DNA of 37,514 bases from a virus (Duplodnaviria > Heunggongvirae > Uroviricota > Caudoviricetes). The notes below the pieces were generated by a model. That model made no database searches, was not told the origin of the DNA, and was given only the letters and a program-made list of their open reading frames with translations. The translations under genes were made by a program, and so were the position numbers. Position 1 is the stretch's first letter. Each line of letters begins with the position of its first letter. Below are positions 7,777 through 16,467 of this stretch, piece after piece. Location: IMG/VR virus record IMGVR_UViG_2534681759_000011. One strand, 5' to 3'.

Positions 7777-10584
7777 ATGACGGCAGAGTACATCAGGGAC
7801 TGGCAGCAACCGCGCCACGCAGTGGGGCGTGAAGGAACGGGGATCCCCGCTCCTGAATCCGCGCTTTCCTCCTGGCTGGATGCCTACCGGGCAGAGAACG
7901 AGCGCTGCCAGGAAATGGCTGATGCGGCGTTCTCCGCCACGCCGCTGGGCAACCTGATTAATAAAAGCCTGGACGCACAGGAAAAACAGGACAAAACCAT
8001 CACACTGGCAGGAGACGCCAGAAAGCAGGTACGCGGCGCGGTGGATGAAGCCATGGCCTCGCTGCGCCTGCTGCCATCCTATCTGCGCGATCCGCTTATT
8101 CGCCACCTCTCCTTCCTGCGCAAAAAACAGGAATCTGACCGCCAGAAAGGTAAAAAGAACCAGCAGGCTGAACGCTACGCGCGCGGGACCCTGCGCAAAA
8201 TATTCGAACGTCTGGATCGCACTGACGGGCGCTGGCTGACACCGGGTTATCGCTCCCTTGCCGGGCGCGAACGCCTGGACGATTTGCTTTACCTGCCGCA
8301 GCTCAACAAGCACCAGATACAGACGCTGGCCACCATGACGGCGGCGATGTTCAGCAGCACCTTCGAAACACTCTGCGATGGCTTTGGTGCCAGAGATGGC
8401 GAGCTGACCATGGATGTAATGTTGAAGGCTTACCGGATGCTGGCCCGTATCGCATTACGCCTGCACATCATGCCGCCACATTACGAAGCCCTGAACAAGA
8501 GCGATCCGGATACGGAACTGTTACCGGGCGCAATCCTTCGCCTGACCTGTGCGGAATGGTGGAAACGCAAATTGTGGCTGTTACGTTGCGAGTGGAGAGA
8601 AGAACAACTCCGCGCCGCCTGTCTGGTTTCCAGAAAAACATCACCCTATCTGAGCCAGGACGCGTTAAGCGAGTTTCGCGCACAGCGCGAGAAAACACGC
8701 GATTTCCTGAAAAGTTTCATGCTGGAAAACGAAGACGGGTTCACGATTGATCTCGAGACAGTGTATTACGCGGGAGTAAGTAACCCGGTTCACCGTAAGG
8801 CAGAAATGATGGCCACCATGAAGGGGCTGGAACTTCTGGCCGAAGCCCGTGGCGACAAAGCGGTGTTTCTGACTGTCACCTGCCCGTCAAAATACCACGC
8901 CACAACAGAGAACGGTCATCCGAATCCCAAATGGAACGGGGCCACCATGCGCGACTCCAGCGATTACCTGGTTAACACGTTTTTTGCGGCGGTCCGCAAG
9001 AAACTGAACCGCGACGGCCTGCGCTGGTATGGCATCCGCACGGTGGAGCCTCACCATGACGGCACCGTGCACTGGCATATGATGGTCTTTGCACATCCGG
9101 ACGAGATTGAAACCATCGTGTCCCACGTCTGCGATATTGCCATTCAGGAAGACCGCCACGAGCTGGGCGATGACATAACTCCGCGTTTTAAGGCGGAGTA
9201 CGTAGACGGCTCAAAAGGCACACCAACCAGCTACATCGCCACCTACATCGGAAAGAACCTGGACAGCCGCGCCGTGGATGGCATCGACCAGAAAACGGGC
9301 AAGCCACGCGTTGACCACGAAACCGGAAAATCAATGGCCGAGAGCGTGGAACGCGCCATCGGCTGGGCGCGCCTTCACCGGGTCCGCCAGTTCCAGTTCT
9401 TTGGCATCCCCTCCCGTCAGGTGTGGCGTGAACTCCGCCGCCTTGCCAGCCAGATGGCACGCAACCCGGAAGGCCCGCAACGGCTGAAGGATGACGCAAT
9501 GGATGCGGTACTCGCTGCCGCTGATGCAGGATGTTTTGCCACCTACATAGAGAAACAGGGCGGCGTACTTGTTCCACGCAAAGACTACCTGATTCGCACC
9601 GCCTACGACCTCGCCGATGAGCTGAACGATTACGGCGAACAGAGCGTACAGATTTACGGGATCTGGTCACCACTCATCGGGGAATCCTCCCGTGTGTGCA
9701 CGCATCCGGATAACTGGAAGCTGGTAAGACGCAAACCGGAAGCGGAAGACAGCGCCCGCGAAAATGGTTTTGACCTTCAGGGCGGCCCTGCCGCCCCTTG
9801 GACTCGTGGCAATAACTGTCCCCGTGTACAGGAAACAGGCAACAGCGGGACAGAACAGTCGAAAGAACGGCCAGCACCGTGGCCGCAGCTTCCTGACGGC
9901 GTTGAAGTGAACGAATGGATGCGCTCACTGAAACGGCACGAACGCCGGGCGCTGATGCGTTCGCTTCGTGACAAACAGGCAAAAAACAGCAGTGATGAAA
10001 TGCAGAGCTGGACACAGAGCCGCAAACAGCAGCGGCCTTTGCCTGATAACCACGAATTACTCGCTAAAGAATGGCGGGAGTCTGCCGAATCTCTCGGCCT
10101 GCATATCGGTGAACAGCAGATGCAGCACCTGCTACGGGGCGGCAGCCTGTACGTTGACGGCAGCATCATTGCACCGCAGGGATATGAAATTGTACGCAAA
10201 CCGGATACCCGCCCGGACAGCCGAATCACGCAGCTCTGGCAGCACCTGAGCCGTAATCACGGCGTAAGCAGCACGGAGATCCGCCATAACCCGGTCGCCA
10301 GCTATCTGGCACAGCTGGGGGCATCAGACCCCGAAGCCGCCGCACGCCTGGCATCCGCACTTCAGCAGGATCAGAACACCATGAAAACACCCGTTACCGT
10401 GCTTTCTGACATGCTGCGCGCCATCCGCGACGCAGAGCACGCACAGAGAATCAGTGAAACCACTGAACGCGCCAGCCGCAAAGCAGACCTGCTGCAGGGT
10501 GGCCTGACCAGTGGAAACAAAAAACAGACAGAAACGGGATCCACAAATCCCGTAAATGAGCAAAAAACGCGCCGCGATATATGA
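7777..10584 (+). CDS. A: Rolling-circle replication initiation endonuclease, P2 gpA family (935 aa)
   Basis: HUH motif in EPHHDGTVHWHMMVF and catalytic tyrosine pair in YIATYIGKNLD; weak RBS, start immediately downstream of the IS. Confidence 0.85.
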   Translation: MTAEYIRDWQQPRHAVGREGTGIPAPESALSSWLDAYRAENERCQEMADAAFSATPLGNLINKSLDAQEKQDKTITLAGDARKQVRGAVDEAMASLRLLPSYLRDPLIRHLSFLRKKQESDRQKGKKNQQAERYARGTLRKIFERLDRTDGRWLTPGYRSLAGRERLDDLLYLPQLNKHQIQTLATMTAAMFSSTFETLCDGFGARDGELTMDVMLKAYRMLARIALRLHIMPPHYEALNKSDPDTELLPGAILRLTCAEWWKRKLWLLRCEWREEQLRAACLVSRKTSPYLSQDALSEFRAQREKTRDFLKSFMLENEDGFTIDLETVYYAGVSNPVHRKAEMMATMKGLELLAEARGDKAVFLTVTCPSKYHATTENGHPNPKWNGATMRDSSDYLVNTFFAAVRKKLNRDGLRWYGIRTVEPHHDGTVHWHMMVFAHPDEIETIVSHVCDIAIQEDRHELGDDITPRFKAEYVDGSKGTPTSYIATYIGKNLDSRAVDGIDQKTGKPRVDHETGKSMAESVERAIGWARLHRVRQFQFFGIPSRQVWRELRRLASQMARNPEGPQRLKDDAMDAVLAAADAGCFATYIEKQGGVLVPRKDYLIRTAYDLADELNDYGEQSVQIYGIWSPLIGESSRVCTHPDNWKLVRRKPEAEDSARENGFDLQGGPAAPWTRGNNCPRVQETGNSGTEQSKERPAPWPQLPDGVEVNEWMRSLKRHERRALMRSLRDKQAKNSSDEMQSWTQSRKQQRPLPDNHELLAKEWRESAESLGLHIGEQQMQHLLRGGSLYVDGSIIAPQGYEIVRKPDTRPDSRITQLWQHLSRNHGVSSTEIRHNPVASYLAQLGASDPEAAARLASALQQDQNTMKTPVTVLSDMLRAIRDAEHAQRISETTERASRKADLLQGGLTSGNKKQTETGSTNPVNEQKTRRDI

Positions 10585-10660: not shown

Positions 10661-11620
10661 ATGAAAATTTGTATCGACGACGGCTCCACCAACATCAAGC
10701 TGGCATGGACTGAGAACGGCGAACGCCGCAACGCCATCAGCCCGAACAGCTTCAAGTCGGAATGGTCTGCGCCGTTCGGTGGCACGCATCCCGCGAACTA
10801 CATGCTTGATGGCGTGCGCTATGGCTTTGATCCGGTCAGCGATCGTTTTGTCCAGACGACTGACACGCAATACCAGTACAGCGATGTGAATGTAATCGCC
10901 ATTCATCACGCGCTGGTCAAATCAGGCATCACGCCACAGGAGGTGGATGTGGTTGTCACCCTGCCACTGAGCGAGTATTTCGACACAAACGCACAGCCGG
11001 ACATGGCCAACATCAACCGCAAAAAAGCGAACGTCATGCGCCCGGTGGAGTACCAGAACGGCGAAGCATTCACTATCCGTAACGTACGGGTTATGCCTGA
11101 ATCCATTCCGGCTGGCTTTAAGGCACTGGCTGACATGAGTCCGTTTGAATCCCTGCTGATTGTGGATTTGGGCGGAACCACGCTGGATGTGGCAAAGGTT
11201 CAGGGGCAGCTGGCAGGTATCAGCCAGGTGTTTTGCGATCCAAACGTAGGCGTTTCCCTGATGGCTGATTCCGTGCTGTCGGTGATGGCCACTAACGGTA
11301 TGCGTACCAGTCACCACATCGCCAATACCATTATTGAGCACCGTCACGATGAAGCCTGGCTGCGCCAGCACATTCACAATGACGCGCATTACAACAGCCT
11401 GATGGCGGTTATTCGTGAAAAGGAGGAGACACTGAAACAACGAGTGATCCGCGCGCTGGCGGGTTTTTCCGGTTACGGGCGGGTGATGGTTGTCGGTGGA
11501 GGGGCGGAGATTGTGGCACCCGCTATCCGCGAAGCCTGCGGAGTTAATGCGACTTTCATCGCGGACGGGGTGCCACAGTTTGCTCTGGTTAATGGGCTGT
11601 ACGCAATGAACAAGGAGTAA
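10661..11620 (+). CDS. parM: Actin-like segregation ATPase, ParM/StbA family (319 aa)
   Basis: Actin-fold motifs IDDGSTNIK (phosphate 1), LIVDLGGTTLDV (phosphate 2) and MVVGGGAE (adenosine); remembered close similarity to plasmid R1 ParM. Confidence 0.85.
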   Translation: MKICIDDGSTNIKLAWTENGERRNAISPNSFKSEWSAPFGGTHPANYMLDGVRYGFDPVSDRFVQTTDTQYQYSDVNVIAIHHALVKSGITPQEVDVVVTLPLSEYFDTNAQPDMANINRKKANVMRPVEYQNGEAFTIRNVRVMPESIPAGFKALADMSPFESLLIVDLGGTTLDVAKVQGQLAGISQVFCDPNVGVSLMADSVLSVMATNGMRTSHHIANTIIEHRHDEAWLRQHIHNDAHYNSLMAVIREKEETLKQRVIRALAGFSGYGRVMVVGGGAEIVAPAIREACGVNATFIADGVPQFALVNGLYAMNKE

Positions 11621-11624
11621 ACCA

Positions 11625-11936
11625 ATGACGACACCAACCAGAAGAATAAGTTTCTATCTGAAGCCAGCTGCCGTCAAGAACGAAGGAGAAGCATGCGCAT
11701 GGCTGGACAGCCTTACACCAGAAGCCCGCAAAAGCGGCCAACGCGTGGCTTTTCTGGCCGGGCTGGCACTTCTGAAGACGAATCCGGCAGAGGCTTACCG
11801 ACTGGCCGCATGGGCTGATGATGAGATGTTACCTGTGACACAAATCAGCTCAAAAAAGTTTGAAGCACAGTCTGCACCAGTGGCTAAGATAACCAGCCAG
11901 ATGGCTGGGAATATCCGGGCGTTATTTCCTGGGTAA
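11625..11936 (+). CDS. parR: ParR-like centromere-binding adaptor protein (103 aa)
   Basis: Immediately downstream of parM; N-terminal RISFYLKP and AFLAGLALL segments resemble R1 ParR. Confidence 0.55.
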   Translation: MTTPTRRISFYLKPAAVKNEGEACAWLDSLTPEARKSGQRVAFLAGLALLKTNPAEAYRLAAWADDEMLPVTQISSKKFEAQSAPVAKITSQMAGNIRALFPG

Positions 11937-12198
11937 AAGCATCTGCGCGAAAAATGCTCACATTTATAGAAACAGTATCATTCCATTTGGCGCACTTACT
12001 TCAATAATCGATCTGTTAAACAAATAGATTGTCTATTATCTATCGATTAAAACGATCAATTATCTTGACAGTAATGTGCCTTTTTGTAAGATCGTTCGCA
12101 TTGTGAGCGACAAGATAATTGCGCGGCATTGTCCATGCAAAACGCCCCAATAGCAGCAACTATTGGGGCGTAGAACTCGGTCGGACTCACTTAACCTG

Positions 12199-12284
12199 AT
12201 ATGCGTGCCTTCCGAAGTAAATCAAAATGTGCGTCGTATATTTTATTGCTTACACGCACCTCTGTAAAGGCACGCATATTTTTC
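12199..12284 (+). other. Structured leader ending in a T-run directly upstream of the 12301 ORF (attenuator-like or small RNA 3' end)
   Basis: ATATGCGTGCCTT (12199-12212) pairs with AAGGCACGCATAT (12266-12278) followed by TTTTT; inner hairpin GTGCGT…ACGCAC; an 11-bp perfect hairpin CGCCCCAATAG/CTATTGGGGCG lies at about 12139-12166; candidate sigma70 promoter TTGACA at about 12066. Confidence 0.3.
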
Positions 12285-12300
12285 CTATGAGGTAAATAAA

Positions 12301-12570
12301 GTGCGGGCTAAAACAGGTATTTGCAAGAACCCTCATCGTTATAACCCAACATTTCTGTCTCTCCCTGAATATCAAGGACAAGAAGGTCGGCACAAATGCG
12401 CTGCCTGTGCTTTTGAGCTAGGCATAAAAGATGCGCTTGAAGGACGCGCTATGGCTCAGAATGATTTAGTTTTAGCTAACATTCCGTTTAGCCAGGCTGG
12501 AACTGTAAGGCACAGAGATGCTTATGAAGCATATGTTCGTGGTTGGCGATTAATACACAGCAACAATTGA
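12301..12570 (+). CDS. Small Cys/His-rich protein of unknown function (89 aa)
   Basis: GTG start with RBS GAGG at 12289; pattern C-x4-H…H-x-C-x2-C suggests metal binding; followed by a strong terminator. Confidence 0.45.
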   Translation: MRAKTGICKNPHRYNPTFLSLPEYQGQEGRHKCAACAFELGIKDALEGRAMAQNDLVLANIPFSQAGTVRHRDAYEAYVRGWRLIHSNN

Positions 12571-12577
12571 TATTTTT

Positions 12578-12603
12578 GAAGCGCCGATAAGGCGCTTTTT
12601 TTG
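12578..12603 (+). terminator. Rho-independent terminator
   Basis: Hairpin AAGCGCC-GATA-AGGCGCTT followed by a T-run. Confidence 0.6.
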
Positions 12604-12727
12604 TTTGCACGATAGTGCACAAGTTTGCACAATTTTTTTGAACGACTTTTTGTACTTCCGGCCCGCGTGGCGGCTGGATCCGTCAAGGATCCGTACGTGC
12701 ACAAAAAACGCGTTTTTTCTACGCGCA

Positions 12728-12746
12728 GGTGACGGGGGAACAGCCC
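12728..12746. other. Candidate cos (cohesive end) core sequence, P2/186-like
   Basis: GGTGACGGGGGAACAGCCC matches the remembered P2 cohesive end GGCGAGGCGGGGAAAGCAC at 13 of 19 positions; lies in the noncoding stretch where cos is expected; flanked by repeated GCCCGCGT and TGCAC motifs. Confidence 0.25.
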
Positions 12747-13004
12747 GCGTTTCAGGGGGTAAATAGCATTCCCTGAACGATGTCGCAGAGACACAACAGA
12801 ATGGCCATATTTCTCACGCTGAGCATGAAAAAGGCGTGAGGGCTTTTGATTTGATGGGGTGAAAGGTAAGGCCGTCAAAATCGCACTGAGGCAGCGAGAA
12901 CATACAGTCAACGTGGTGGGATTGCGTAAGAGTCTGACCGTCGATGGTGGCGATAAACTGGAAGGCGTCGTGAAATTATCTGATTGATACAGGAGCTGGA
13001 GAGT

Positions 13005-13029
13005 CGGGGCATAAATTTTTTATGCCCCG
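13005..13029. other. Stable hairpin in the packaging region
   Basis: Stem CGGGGCAT/ATGCCCCG with a 9-nt loop; no T-run on either side. Confidence 0.3.
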
Positions 13030-13130
13030 GCGAAGCAGCAGACAAGCGAAGCGCGTCAGCGATACGGCACCTTGCCGACCATACTTCGTAAGTGCAAAAT
13101 ACGAGCAAAGAAATCAATGGAGGCTGTCTT

Positions 13131-13655
13131 ATGGTCATTAATTACAAGCAGTTAAGAGAAAAACGGGAGCAGGTAAAGGAGAGCTTTCGCCGCAATGAAG
13201 ATCTGACCCCGCTTGTACGCCTTGCCCAGGGCATTGTTGATGCTTATGAAATCTCGCTGGAGCTGCCATCACAGACCTGGACAGATAGCGACGGTAATCG
13301 CCAGCATTACGTTTCATGCGGACTGGAAGCAGCCGAAGGATTTCGCAGAATGCCTTTATCTCAGATCCCTGCCGCTACCCCCAAAGCAAGGGGCGGCAAT
13401 GATGAGCGAAAACTGATTTTCAGCATTGAGACAGTGGTTGACGACACACCTGGCGAAGTCGCCTTCGTGCATACTCCTCTTTCGATCGCAATGTATAACG
13501 ATGAAATACAGGTTCGCGTTAATAATAATATCGTGCCACTTAAAGAAGGTAATTCACCCTACACCACCGTTTGTGAAGCCATTCAATATTACGTTTTCTC
13601 TGAAATTGATAATCTCAAGCCTGACGGCACCCAGAAAATGGTTCAGCTCTGGTAA
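13131..13655 (+). CDS. Uncharacterised protein (174 aa) between the putative cos region and the portal gene
   Basis: ATG at 13131 with RBS GGAGG at 13119-13123; AT-rich compared with neighbouring structural genes; convergent with portal gene; no recognisable motif. Confidence 0.5.
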   Translation: MVINYKQLREKREQVKESFRRNEDLTPLVRLAQGIVDAYEISLELPSQTWTDSDGNRQHYVSCGLEAAEGFRRMPLSQIPAATPKARGGNDERKLIFSIETVVDDTPGEVAFVHTPLSIAMYNDEIQVRVNNNIVPLKEGNSPYTTVCEAIQYYVFSEIDNLKPDGTQKMVQLW

Positions 13656-13660
13656 AAAGG

Positions 13661-13686
13661 ACAGCCCCATCACGGGGCTGTTTTTT
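13661..13686 (+). terminator. Rho-independent terminator overlapping the 3' end of the portal gene
   Basis: Hairpin ACAGCCCC-ATCA-GGGGCTGT followed by TTTTTT. Confidence 0.5.
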
Positions 13687-14716
13687 CATCAAGAAGAGCA
13701 TAAGAGTTAAAACGGATCACCTCTTCGCCAAGCCAGTCATTGATGTGCTTCATGGCCTCCATAACGGGCATCAGCTCGTTAATTGCGTAAACCCGCGCGG
13801 CCTTCTCCACATCACCAAACGCACTTTTTTCGCCCGGCATCGCCCCCATCAGTTGCGGCGGAACACGGTGCGCAGCCAGCACATCATCACGGGATGCCGC
13901 CTTAACATTCATGAACTCATCTTTTGCGGTGATCTGCTGGAACGGCAAAATTTGCACCCCCTCTTTGCCCCCGTTGGGCGCATGAATGAGCACGTTTTTA
14001 AATGCACCACCACCACGTGCACCCTGTAATGTTTCTTTCAGGGAGTCCATGCTTTCGCGGTTTACCTGCGCTGCACCGATGTAGATGATGCACCCGGCGT
14101 GGGATCCGTTGTCGTAATACAGTTTTCTGAACATGTCCGCCGAATGAGACAGGCTGGCCGAGAGTAATGCGCCGAGATATTCCGGCATGCCGTAGATTTC
14201 CTGGTTAATGTCAGGATTCATCAGGTGGCACACTTTGCCAGGGCGAAACTGAAACGCATCCTTGCCATCCTGCACATACCACCATGATTCAAGATCGCTT
14301 CCGCGTCGCATGTATTTCGCCAGGGCGTGCCGTAATTTAAGCGGTTCGCCGAGCATATTGCTTCGAAGCTCAAGGAATGCGTTACCGAACACAAACCAGT
14401 CCAGCGTCAGCGCCGAGAAATCCTGCCGGGAAAGCAGCGGGTGCGGGATGTAGCAACCGAGCAATACATTACGCTTAAAGTAAAGCGCAGACTGATGCCA
14501 GGACGTTTGCCGGGCAGCTCTTGCCAGACCGTACCAGTCCACCGGGGTTTCATACCACCGCCCGTTATCAGCACAGTACATATTGTCCAGCAGGTCATGC
14601 CCGGTCAGGCGATAAGGACCATCAAATGTGAATGCACTGAGCGATGATTCTTTCCTGAGCGCATCAGCGAGATCAATGCGTGAACTCATGCGCACTTTTT
14701 TATTTTTTCTGCTCAT
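13670..14716 (-). CDS. Q: Portal protein, P2 gpQ family (348 aa)
   Basis: Size, position next to the terminase gene and remembered gpQ similarity. Confidence 0.85.
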   Translation of the reverse strand: MSRKNKKVRMSSRIDLADALRKESSLSAFTFDGPYRLTGHDLLDNMYCADNGRWYETPVDWYGLARAARQTSWHQSALYFKRNVLLGCYIPHPLLSRQDFSALTLDWFVFGNAFLELRSNMLGEPLKLRHALAKYMRRGSDLESWWYVQDGKDAFQFRPGKVCHLMNPDINQEIYGMPEYLGALLSASLSHSADMFRKLYYDNGSHAGCIIYIGAAQVNRESMDSLKETLQGARGGGAFKNVLIHAPNGGKEGVQILPFQQITAKDEFMNVKAASRDDVLAAHRVPPQLMGAMPGEKSAFGDVEKAARVYAINELMPVMEAMKHINDWLGEEVIRFNSYALLDEKTAP

Positions 14717-16467
14717 CAGAACTCCATAACCGTAAAACGCTCGTTTTCTCCTTCGCCGCCAATTGGTTCGTTAATGACAGCAAGCATGGTTGCCCACGCA
14801 AGGTCGCCGTGGCTGATCCCCCTCGCACGGTCCGTTTCGTAAGTGATAAAGCCGCCCGGTGTTTTCACCTTACGCACGGCGTTAAAGGCCGCGACCAGCT
14901 CGCGTTCGGCGCGATCGTATTCCCACCGCCCGGCACGCATTATTTGCAGCATTTTCAGTACCAGCGACCGTTTTGATGACAGCGTGAAGGTGTACGGAAT
15001 AGCAGCAGGGAAAAACCGTTTCACTATCTGATAAACAGCCTCCCCGTTCCCGCCCGTCACATCAATGCCGATGTGTTCCACGTTGTAGCGACACGTGAAC
15101 TCTTCAATGACTCTGGCCTGTTCTTCAAACTCCAGCCCCTGAACGCGTCGCGTCTCCACCGTTCGAAAACGGCCACCAGGAACAGCCGGAGGAACCACCA
15201 CGGACACAGCGCCGCTGTCGCCGTTGCCACTGCTGCCGTTTGCGTCATACCCAATCCATACCGGACGATTCCCCATCGGGCGGGGAGCAAAAGGTTTCCA
15301 GTCTTTCCAGTCGTCGTATCCGTCAACACCGCAGCCAATCAGGATATTCAGGTTAAATGCCGATTCCCCTTCGCGGACAAACTCACACATATAGAGATTG
15401 CGGAACTCGTCTTCGGTGTTTTCATCACGAATTTCGTCAATATCGGTGTGTTTCCAGCCGTGATTAACCACATCTTCCAGCGTGACAATTTGCCGCCACG
15501 TCCGGTCAGGGCAGATAAGCCCGTTATGCAGCGTTTTCCAGTCCACAGAAAAACGCTGGCGTTTATGCGTGGCCTTTTTCTCGTTCCAGCGGTCGCCGTT
15601 CCAGTAGGCGTATGCCTCGTGCGTTTCGGTGGATGGCGTGGAGAAGTAGGTGCGCCGCAGTCCGCTGAGGGTTGCCATAGCGCCAGCCACCTTGCGCAGT
15701 TCAGCAAAGCGACTGACCCAGAAAAATTCATCAAAATAAAAATTGCCCGTATAGGACTGTGCCGACGCAGCAGAAGTGCCGAGAAAATGCAGCTCTGCGC
15801 CGTTGGAGAGGATGATTTTATCGCCCCCTTTCAGCTCCACATCAACTTCAGCCGCGGCCTTCTGAATAATGCTTTTGAACTGGAACGCCTGACGACGCGA
15901 CGCAGACAAAAAAATCTGGTTACGCTGGTAAGGTTGCGCCACATCGTCACGCAGCGCCATCAGCAGAGCTTCCTGTGCAAAATACCAGGTCGCCCCAATC
16001 TGTCGGGATTTCAGGATCATCCTGTTACGTATCCCGGCTTCCCTGCAAAGTGTCAGGGAGTCAAACCAGCCCCGCTGATGCCACTCCAGCCTGCTGATGA
16101 TTTTTTCCCGCAGTGCGGCAATCTGTTCCGGCGTGAAATGATTTTTGAGTTTTTTCGCCCGGCCTTTCTTTCCTGCGGCCATCACATCCGGCTGGCCATC
16201 ATGCAGCTTTTTAAGCTGCCGGGTCAGCAGGTCTATTTCCTTAAAGTCACCGCCTGTTTTATTCTGTTTTTCAGTAAGCTGGATGAGGCGCGCATCGATG
16301 GACTGCGTGACACGCTGCACGGGTGGCGTTTCATCCCACTGGTCGCGTTTTTTCCACGCATAAACCGTGTTCGGGTTTATTCCCATCAGACGTGATATTT
16401 CTGCGGGCGGATAACCCTGCCAGTAAAGTTGCCGCGCACGCTGGCGCACAAAAGCGTCCTGAATCAT
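14716..16467 (-). CDS. P: Terminase large (ATPase) subunit, P2 gpP family (583 aa)
   Basis: Size and remembered gpP similarity; divergent from the O-N-M-L capsid operon. Confidence 0.85.
   Translation of the reverse strand: MIQDAFVRQRARQLYWQGYPPAEISRLMGINPNTVYAWKKRDQWDETPPVQRVTQSIDARLIQLTEKQNKTGGDFKEIDLLTRQLKKLHDGQPDVMAAGKKGRAKKLKNHFTPEQIAALREKIISRLEWHQRGWFDSLTLCREAGIRNRMILKSRQIGATWYFAQEALLMALRDDVAQPYQRNQIFLSASRRQAFQFKSIIQKAAAEVDVELKGGDKIILSNGAELHFLGTSAASAQSYTGNFYFDEFFWVSRFAELRKVAGAMATLSGLRRTYFSTPSTETHEAYAYWNGDRWNEKKATHKRQRFSVDWKTLHNGLICPDRTWRQIVTLEDVVNHGWKHTDIDEIRDENTEDEFRNLYMCEFVREGESAFNLNILIGCGVDGYDDWKDWKPFAPRPMGNRPVWIGYDANGSSGNGDSGAVSVVVPPAVPGGRFRTVETRRVQGLEFEEQARVIEEFTCRYNVEHIGIDVTGGNGEAVYQIVKRFFPAAIPYTFTLSSKRSLVLKMLQIMRAGRWEYDRAERELVAAFNAVRKVKTPGGFITYETDRARGISHGDLAWATMLAVINEPIGGEGENERFTVMEF

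Follow-up and report, generated by a model that had tools for sequence, protein, structure and literature searches.

The region between the replication endonuclease gene and the portal gene of the prophage studied here most plausibly holds a P88-type cohesive-end (cos) site and, beside it, an optional accessory gene whose 174-amino-acid (aa) product would be a protein-binding factor in conflicts of the phage with its host or with other phages; we put the probability of this reading, the anatomy included, at roughly 0.55. The window, by which we mean the whole stretch of DNA that was analysed (37,514 nucleotides from IMG/VR virus record IMGVR_UViG_2534681759_000011), is a P88-type P2-like prophage (Xuanwuvirus, Peduoviridae) of Escherichia coli. 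Judged by sequence, cos and the terminase-recognition region very probably occupy the interval 12604-12760, within which 12728-12746 would be, or overlap, the cohesive end; the 174-aa open reading frame (ORF) at 13131-13655, which separates cos from the portal gene, is genuine but optional. The argument depends on the following features.

12606-12630, plus strand: three TGCAC boxes, 10 bp apart, ~100-122 bp 5' of the 19-mer; candidate terminase-binding sites
12697-12727, plus strand: proximal box GTGCACAAAAAA, inverted repeat CGCGT/ACGCG and GCGCA; left arm of the P2-type cos core
12728-12746, plus strand: candidate cohesive-end 19-mer GGTGACGGGGGAACAGCCC (cosN), with putative nick positions
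12747-12989, no strand: P88-type-specific spacer, ~91% conserved with P88
12990-13067, no strand: conserved 75-bp block with a perfect hairpin
13060-13694, no strand: presence/absence segment, 635 bp as against 21 bp in P88 (blastn breakpoints)
13072-13100, plus strand: putative sigma-70 promoter TTGCCG-17 nt-CAAAAT (consensus match 4/6 + 4/6)
13131-13655, plus strand: 174-aa gene (WP_000236493.1, "hypothetical protein"; PHROG 5091), soluble product with an alpha+beta fold without match
13661-13681, no strand: bidirectional intrinsic terminator of the gene and the portal gene, with T-runs on both sides (TTTTTT after the stem on the plus strand)

The first-pass annotation of this DNA had taken the whole of 12604-13130 for the terminase recognition and cos region, citing its repeats, a stable hairpin and a 19-mer that resembles the P2 cohesive end. 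The repeats are all present (TGCAC starting at 12606, 12616, 12626, and 12698, GCCCGCGT at 12661 and 12743, and GGATCCGT at 12676 and 12687), and the proximal box, which reads GTGCACAAAAAACG, starts 31 nt 5' of the 19-mer. A triple TGCA box with 10-bp spacing occurs once in the 37.5-kb window, while dinucleotide shuffles lead one to expect 0.12 of them, and 0.0 of the triple TGCAC version. The candidate 19-mer is the sole match in the window, at four or fewer mismatches, to itself, to its variant in E. coli AMSCJX04 or to the 19-mer of P2; that of phage 186 has one off-target match with four mismatches, located in gpA (minus strand, 7925). Moreover, the candidate site is flanked by gpA (7777-10584) and the portal gene (13670-14716), a placement as in P2-type cos sites. 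By direct reading the window 19-mer agrees with the P2 cohesive end (GGCGAGGCGGGGAAAGCAC) at 13 of 19 positions, and the AMSCJX04 variant (GGTGACGGGGGGAAAGCCC) agrees with P2 at 15 of 19, bridging the window type to that of P2. Smith-Waterman alignment of 12571-13130 with the P2 and 186 cos junctions, however, gave scores equal to those of shuffled sequences. The proposed resemblance is thus present and unique in the window, but by itself it proves nothing, and since plain alignment is uninformative here, architecture and conservation were compared in its place.

That architecture is shared in considerable detail. The annotated cos sites of P2, 186, and P4 have a box TGCATTAAAACCG 30 nt 5' of the cohesive end, followed by a short inverted repeat, and a distal TGCA cluster with a spacing of 9-13 bp lies ~80-120 bp 5' of the mapped cos, comprising two boxes in P2 and three in 186 and P4. 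Like these sites, whose 55-bp core goes back to Ziermann and Calendar (1990; as cited in PMC5694545 and PMC9122126), the window site lies between replication-side cargo and the portal gene and combines a G-rich 19-mer beginning with GG(C/T)G, a TGCA/A-rich box 30-31 nt 5' of it (offset 31 nt in the window, 30 nt in P2 and 186), an inverted repeat between the two, and distal TGCA boxes ~10 bp apart some 100 bp 5'. It differs in that its boxes read TGCAC rather than TGCAT or TGCAA, and in that its candidate cleavage site is known from sequence only.

Conservation points in the same direction. The boxes, the 19-mer and the string GCGCAGG(T/C)G(A/C)CGGGGG(A/G)A(A/C)AGC are invariant across divergent prophages of E. 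coli, Salmonella, and Trabulsiella, the triple TGCAC cluster is unchanged in an alignment of six Escherichia, Salmonella, and Trabulsiella prophages, and the 19-mer of the Salmonella prophages is identical to that of the window. The sequence between the boxes, the GCCCGCGT and GGATCCGT repeats included, is free to vary across genera. A survey of the cos core in IMG/VR yielded 120 loci, 110 of which had enough flanking sequence for a portal check. A P2-type portal gene was found on the opposite strand 175-924 bp 3' of the 19-mer in 110 out of 110 of these; the proximal box lay 30-32 nt 5' of the 19-mer in 114 out of 116 loci and the triple box was present in 95 out of 115. No P4-like satellite with the same cos core was encountered among the 110 informative IMG/VR loci, which were all of the helper type with a portal gene downstream. 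We regard 12604-12760 as the probable cos region because the layout of P2, 186, and P4 is shared and is conserved across genera. The TGCAC boxes are presumably docking sites of the terminase, by analogy with these phages, and the analysis turned up no stronger candidate for cos. Among 16 related GenBank records there is none with a terminus at the 19-mer; the record of P884B11 (Xuanwuvirus, NC_049391) begins 77 bp 5' of it, at an apparently arbitrary point. An Ogr-type TGT-N12-ACA dyad at 12781 was discarded as a chance match, as three of these occur in the window, where we estimate ~9 to be expected, and none at the known late promoters.

The remainder of the 530 bp has a different character: recognisable cos elements stop near 12760, beyond which there is spacer and then a separate hairpin block, so that of the interval originally assigned to cos only the first part retains that assignment. 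The spacer at 12747-12989 is specific to P88-type phages; EC0026B, S1-CAM-02-A, and Salmonella have unrelated sequence in its place. Of the four ORFs in 12604-13130 (53 and 42 aa, and 76 and 129 aa on the minus strand) none has a PHROG match. The 42-aa ORF (12859-12987) is annotated as hypothetical in P88, P884B11, PhiR44_2, and RefSeq (WP_000676503.1), yet it accumulates nine nonsynonymous against two to three synonymous differences, has no third-position bias and is probably not a gene. The statement that this stretch contains no credible ORF therefore stands, given the lack of PHROG matches and the non-coding pattern of substitution. The hairpin that had been noticed is equally real: it consists of GGGGCATAAA-TTT-TTTATGCCCC at 13005-13029, whose 11-nt arms pair perfectly around a loop of 3 nt (dG -15.8 kcal/mol, z = -5.75), and, since neither side carries a T-run, it is not a canonical terminator. 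The 75-bp block around it is 91-98.6% identical in four prophages (at least 97% in three), for which the identity of the portal DNA reaches just 74-82%. The stop codon of the portal gene of P88-type phages falls within this block (TCA at 13056-13058 in window coordinates), and the block probably once formed the 3' end of the portal operon.

It is past this point that the window departs from its gene-less relatives. P88, P884B11, 520873, and others align to the window only as far as 13063, and the 635-bp segment at 13060-13694 holds the gene, a promoter-like site, a new terminator and the last approximately five portal codons, such that the portal C-terminus is replaced (EKTAP vs. TQPTS). The distance from the 19-mer to the portal stop is 923 bp here and 310 bp in the P88 type; it is 167 bp in P2, where ~130 bp had been assumed in the first-pass annotation, and 176 bp in 186. 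The nearest phage records that do contain the 174-aa gene are PhiR44_2, vB_EcoM-569R5, and vB_EcoM-705R2, and the chromosome of E. coli ETEC6 carries cos and portal flanks that are 100% identical to the window, with equal spacing and equal annotation. Among 5426 complete E. coli genomes, the cos region was found in 1134 and the module in 397 (~7%), ST131 included; ~35% of the P88-like prophages of E. coli thus carry the module and ~65% are without it. The cos-portal span took only two values in a spread sample of genomes, 20 of which had the module and 37 of which had not. The gene is evidently dispensable, because P88 and about two-thirds of the E. coli relatives lack it. In E. coli SEC470 (NZ_CP007594.1, 2142325-2143707) the module is 100% identical but split in two, with an IS1-family transposase annotated under the match, and an IS1 insertion appears to have occurred in or beside the gene.

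The signals of the gene are in part clear. A GGAGG lies 7 nt 5' of the ATG at 13131, and the stop codon ends at 13655, 14 nt from the portal stop codon (13670-13672). The hairpin between the two genes (13661-13681, dG -10 kcal/mol, z = -5.74) overlaps the last portal codons and has T-runs on both sides, which agrees with the bidirectional terminator that had been proposed; the terminator scan reported it on the minus strand. The promoter-like site fell below the threshold of a consensus promoter scan, and we therefore only infer a promoter, the evidence for its use being the conservation of its hexamers in Salmonella: two Salmonella alleles retain the -35 (TTGCCG / TTGTCT), the -10 (CAAAAT), and the 17-nt spacing, whereas the sequence of the spacer differs. 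The gene had been described as AT-rich and unrecognisable. Its composition is in fact only mildly shifted (47.2% GC; the portal gene has 52.6% and the window as a whole 52.3%), but the second half of the description holds, since its product contains no recognisable domain.

The protein, as predicted, is soluble, has a pI of ~5 and no long hydrophobic, membrane-like stretch. Homology and structure searches returned only PHROG 5091, a family of unknown function, and no matching fold. Residues 1-168 match positions 1-164 of the 164-position PHROG 5091 profile (E = 1.4e-66), and no Pfam or NCBIfam model matched; PADLOC-DB 2.0.0 likewise yielded no family at E up to 1. A word-indexed search found close relatives in E. 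coli, Salmonella, Yersinia, and Trabulsiella, with homologues 47-97% identical and a conserved N-terminus, MVINY. An exhaustive profile search extended the family to 89 cluster representatives at E <=0.001, most full-length members being 155-185 aa long and the most divergent ones ~21% identical. They share the motifs M-x-I-T-Y-x-D-I, Y-x-x-S-L-x-L-P-x-x-x-W-x-D-x-x-G-x-x-x-P-Y-V, F-x-I-x-T-V-x-D-D-x-P-x-G-G, and E-V-C-x-x-I-K, and distant members (in Morganella, Lelliottia, LH50-c, and an IMG/VR contig) also match the PHROG 5091 profile. Between the window and PhiR44_2 the gene shows 10 synonymous and 4 nonsynonymous codon differences. AlphaFold, run on a 47-sequence alignment, gave a model (pLDDT 90.1, pTM 0.80) in which two helices at the N-terminus and one at the C-terminus accompany an antiparallel sheet. 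Foldseek comparison of this model with the PDB (best E = 0.67) and with viral models (best E = 0.07) identified no relative; no catalytic, DNA-binding or nuclease motif was found, nor any sequence or fold homology to virion or terminase components. Sequence matches in the PDB to designed helical-repeat proteins (E to 2e-10) are the sum of three weak repeats, each of E ~3, and were set aside as chance. The literature that we searched makes no mention of the protein accessions or of PHROG 5091.

The locations of the family tell something of its history. Two Salmonella prophages have a member between cos and the portal gene, with the identical 19-mer ~340 bp 5' of the gene, and an E. coli allele of 56% identity (locus L019) occupies the same slot, inserted, as in the window, after the 75-bp block. 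In a Morganella prophage a member of ~25% identity lies 243 bp 3' of a near-186 cos, GGCGTGGCGGGGCTACGAT, preceded by GGGTGCATGAAAACCG...GTGGGCA. E. coli LH50-c has a member of ~24% identity on the other side of the hairpin block, i.e., inserted before it. This protein (WP_223942718.1; L041 5247-5957) is annotated as 236 aa, of which only residues 70-236 correspond to PHROG 5091; its N-terminal extension of 69 residues comes from translating the counterpart of the 42-aa ORF region, and its true start is probably M70 (MSHFNDL...). Long cos-portal gaps occurred in 11 of the 110 surveyed loci, and all of these and only these contained a family member, which makes it the only cargo of the interval, while the distance from gpA to cos ranged from 0.97 to 5.2 kb. 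Amino-acid identities to the window for cargo and portal, respectively, are 63/75 and 61/73 (Salmonella), 56/68 (L019), and 25/48 (Morganella); in one case the cargo was replaced (24% identity vs. 82% for the portal). Because the two values mostly co-vary, the family looks, on these comparisons, like an old resident of the gap rather than a recently acquired cassette, one that is inherited mostly vertically, diverges faster than the portal, is often lost and sometimes swapped. It is not confined to this slot. In a prophage of Trabulsiella guamensis (L011 6738-8053) the gene directly follows gpA, 2.1 kb 5' of cos, and next to it are a small ORF beside a HicB gene and then Phd-Fic modules, with the cos-like site at 8656-8674. 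Members were also found in Yersinia and others beyond E. coli, Salmonella, and Morganella, and a scan of genome contigs gave one locus. All family contexts found are phage; none is a chromosomal defence island.

The mechanism that we favour would run as follows. The terminase would dock at the TGCAC and proximal boxes on the replication-gene side of cos and make a staggered cut at the G-rich 19-mer. The 174-aa gene would be expressed from a weak sigma-70-type promoter of its own, with a strong ribosome-binding site and a terminator in common with the portal gene, and its product would bind another protein in a phage-host or phage-phage conflict; what the sequences show is the anatomy, its conservation, the presence or absence of the module and the distribution of the family, and the cut site, the use of the promoter, the timing of expression and this function are what we infer. 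Within this reading we lean slightly toward counter-defence or takeover over an exclusion function that protects the lysogen, because all members are phage-borne and many lie in late or packaging regions. We do not think that the protein is a component of the packaging machinery. Several observations nevertheless weigh against this reading, the anatomy included. The protein has no PADLOC match, so that the defence role suggested earlier receives no support from that side; the promoter is weak and is absent from the L019 allele; and P884B11 has a 5-bp deletion (CCCGC) within the 3' part of the proposed 19-mer, so that the overhang may be offset from 12728-12746 or vary between strains. There is no conserved partner gene, as only a 177-aa upstream neighbour, not a paralogue, recurs in 4 out of 18 distant loci. 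In 10 of these 18 loci the family gene lies just 5' of an HNH gene, followed in 8 of the 10 by the large terminase and portal genes (HK97-type prophages), a layout (family gene-HNH-terminase-portal) also seen in two Lelliottia prophages, and in three more loci it precedes the small terminase gene by one to three genes. Both this packaging-module neighbourhood and the specificity for the slot between cos and portal would fit a role in packaging or at the DNA end equally well.

An accessory of packaging or of the genome end, which might aid the terminase, the HNH protein or the portal at cos, shield or label the DNA end, or travel in the virion and be injected like the Dar proteins of P1, is kept alive by this fidelity to cos and to packaging modules. 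We nonetheless consider it unlikely: P88 is viable without the gene, 65% of the E. coli relatives lack it, and in the P2-like phages the gene converges on the portal operon and stands outside it. Furthermore, other members of the family lie beside holin, lysozyme or tail genes, and in Trabulsiella it is 2.1 kb off across cos, while the match to DarA is no better than that to a dozen unrelated folds and the motif searches described above were negative. A more specific proposal is that PHROG 5091 is a cos-linked family whose position at the packaging site is functional in both the P2-like and the HK97-like (HNH-terminase) lineages; it may, for example, guard the cos and terminase of the helper from satellites (P4-like, cos-type PICIs), or protect or signal the injected DNA end by means of a new fold. 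This we hold to be doubtful. The most credible of the alternatives, although improbable in itself, is defence of the lysogen or superinfection exclusion, with the gene expressed from the prophage like old, tin, and fun of P2. The gene does lie inside the gpA-gpQ hotspot that is rich in anti-phage systems (PMC9122126; PMC13586616), and it has its own promoter-like site and terminator, a lower GC content, presence and absence among near-identical phages, and one allele that was swapped while the portal remained 82% identical. Against this, the product is a single small protein without effector-like domain or PADLOC model match, and its family was found only in phage contexts and in no chromosomal defence island; the variable, defence-rich side of the hotspot is the gpA-to-cos part and not the cos-portal slot, and the divergence of the gene mostly follows that of the portal, unlike that of often-exchanged defence cassettes. 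Finally, the ORF would be spurious if cos lay inside or beyond it, a thought encouraged by the fact that the cos ends are themselves predicted and that plain alignment with cos of P2 or 186 falls short of significance. Full-length homologues down to ~21% identity, conserved motifs, a confident fold and coding-type substitutions, together with a cos architecture at 12606-12746 that is retained in phages without the gene, effectively refute this.

With respect to known systems, a gene between cos and the portal is not unusual. The P2-like phages phiCTX and phiRSY1 carry extra genes between cos and the gpQ homologue (ctx and ORF1-4, respectively), in what has been called a left-arm hot spot (PMC5694545, citing Nakayama, 1999, and Dodd and Egan, 1996), and these resemble the present gene in being non-essential cargo in that place. 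They are unrelated to it, however, encoding a cytotoxin and a Vgr-like protein, whereas here one family recurs across genera and is the sole cargo seen among 110 loci. In addition, the gpA-gpQ interval is a published defence hotspot of P2 that houses old, tin, and retrons among other systems (Rousset et al., 2022, PMC9122126; PMC13586616), and as defined by Rousset et al. it includes the 174-aa gene. P2 old and tin and those hotspot clones of Table S2A whose sequence, as given there, reaches cos lie on the gpA side, whereas the 174-aa gene lies on the portal side. The part of Table S2 of PMC9122126 that could be consulted does not list the protein among the tested systems. The ST131 allele, WP_000236495, has 167 entries in Table S5A of the same study, where it is called hypothetical and stands beside ParM/ParR and DUF4760 (PMC9122126).

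Lambdoid morons, of which bor of lambda, placed between cos and the lysis genes, is an example, are small self-contained transcription units at a module boundary that are present or absent among relatives. The 174-aa gene resembles them in its place next to cos and in its presence and absence between near-identical phages. Its terminator is clear, and its putative promoter matches the consensus at 4/6 + 4/6 positions; it differs from bor-type morons in that its shift in composition is small (47% vs. 52% GC) and in that it appears to have long been inherited with the phage. It had also been argued that a gene at the very left end of the packaged genome would be the first DNA to enter the host. 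This rationale is not supported: a literature search for the P2 end that is injected first gave only citations of Chattoraj and Inman (1974) without its result, and the family lies on the other side of cos in Trabulsiella and elsewhere near holin and tail genes. Last-in-first-out entry is contested even for lambda (PMC10287942).

The cos call gives the P88 (Xuanwuvirus) group, which is present in about one-fifth of complete E. coli genomes, including ST131, a specific packaging site that can be put to the test. The layout as such was already known, and from that perspective the gene adds to the uncharacterised accessory genes of an established hotspot; what stands out is the association of its family with packaging signals in unrelated cos phages. 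We consider that this widespread and unstudied phage protein may have a new function in counter-defence, in exclusion or against satellites because it combines a confident, unmatched fold with an unusually faithful position beside packaging signals.

The surrounding genes of the prophage are listed here in the order of the window.

7777-10584: replication endonuclease gpA
10661-11620: ParM, directly after gpA
11625-11936: partition partner protein (Pfam Plasmid_stab_B)
12301-12570: 89-aa gene, phrog_3941 (function unknown), the last gene before cos
12578-12598, plus strand: intrinsic terminator of the 89-aa gene, an 8-bp stem followed by a T-run
13670-14716, minus strand: portal gene (gpQ homologue; Pfam PF04860; RefSeq annotation of the identical locus)
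14716-16467, minus strand: large terminase gene, after the portal gene

The terminator at 12578-12598 insulates the cos region from rightward transcription. The AT-rich stretch 11937-12300 (GC 0.37-0.44) contains no listed ORF above 47 aa and has a promoter-like site at 12268-12240 on the minus strand. No Rfam family matched in the region of cos and the gene; outside it, sub-threshold similarity to the antisense RNAs ctRNA_pGA1 and sar was seen at 12142-12171 on the minus strand. The 89-aa protein has cysteines at residues 8, 43, and 46, and other P88-like phages have other cargo at its position, i.e., DUF4760 and a hypothetical gene in ST131 and several small ORFs in PhiR44_2. The pair of ParM and Plasmid_stab_B genes (10661-11936) fits the report that approximately one-quarter of P2-like phages carry a partition system in the gpA-gpQ hotspot (PMC9122126; PMC13586616), and it raises the question of plasmid-like maintenance.

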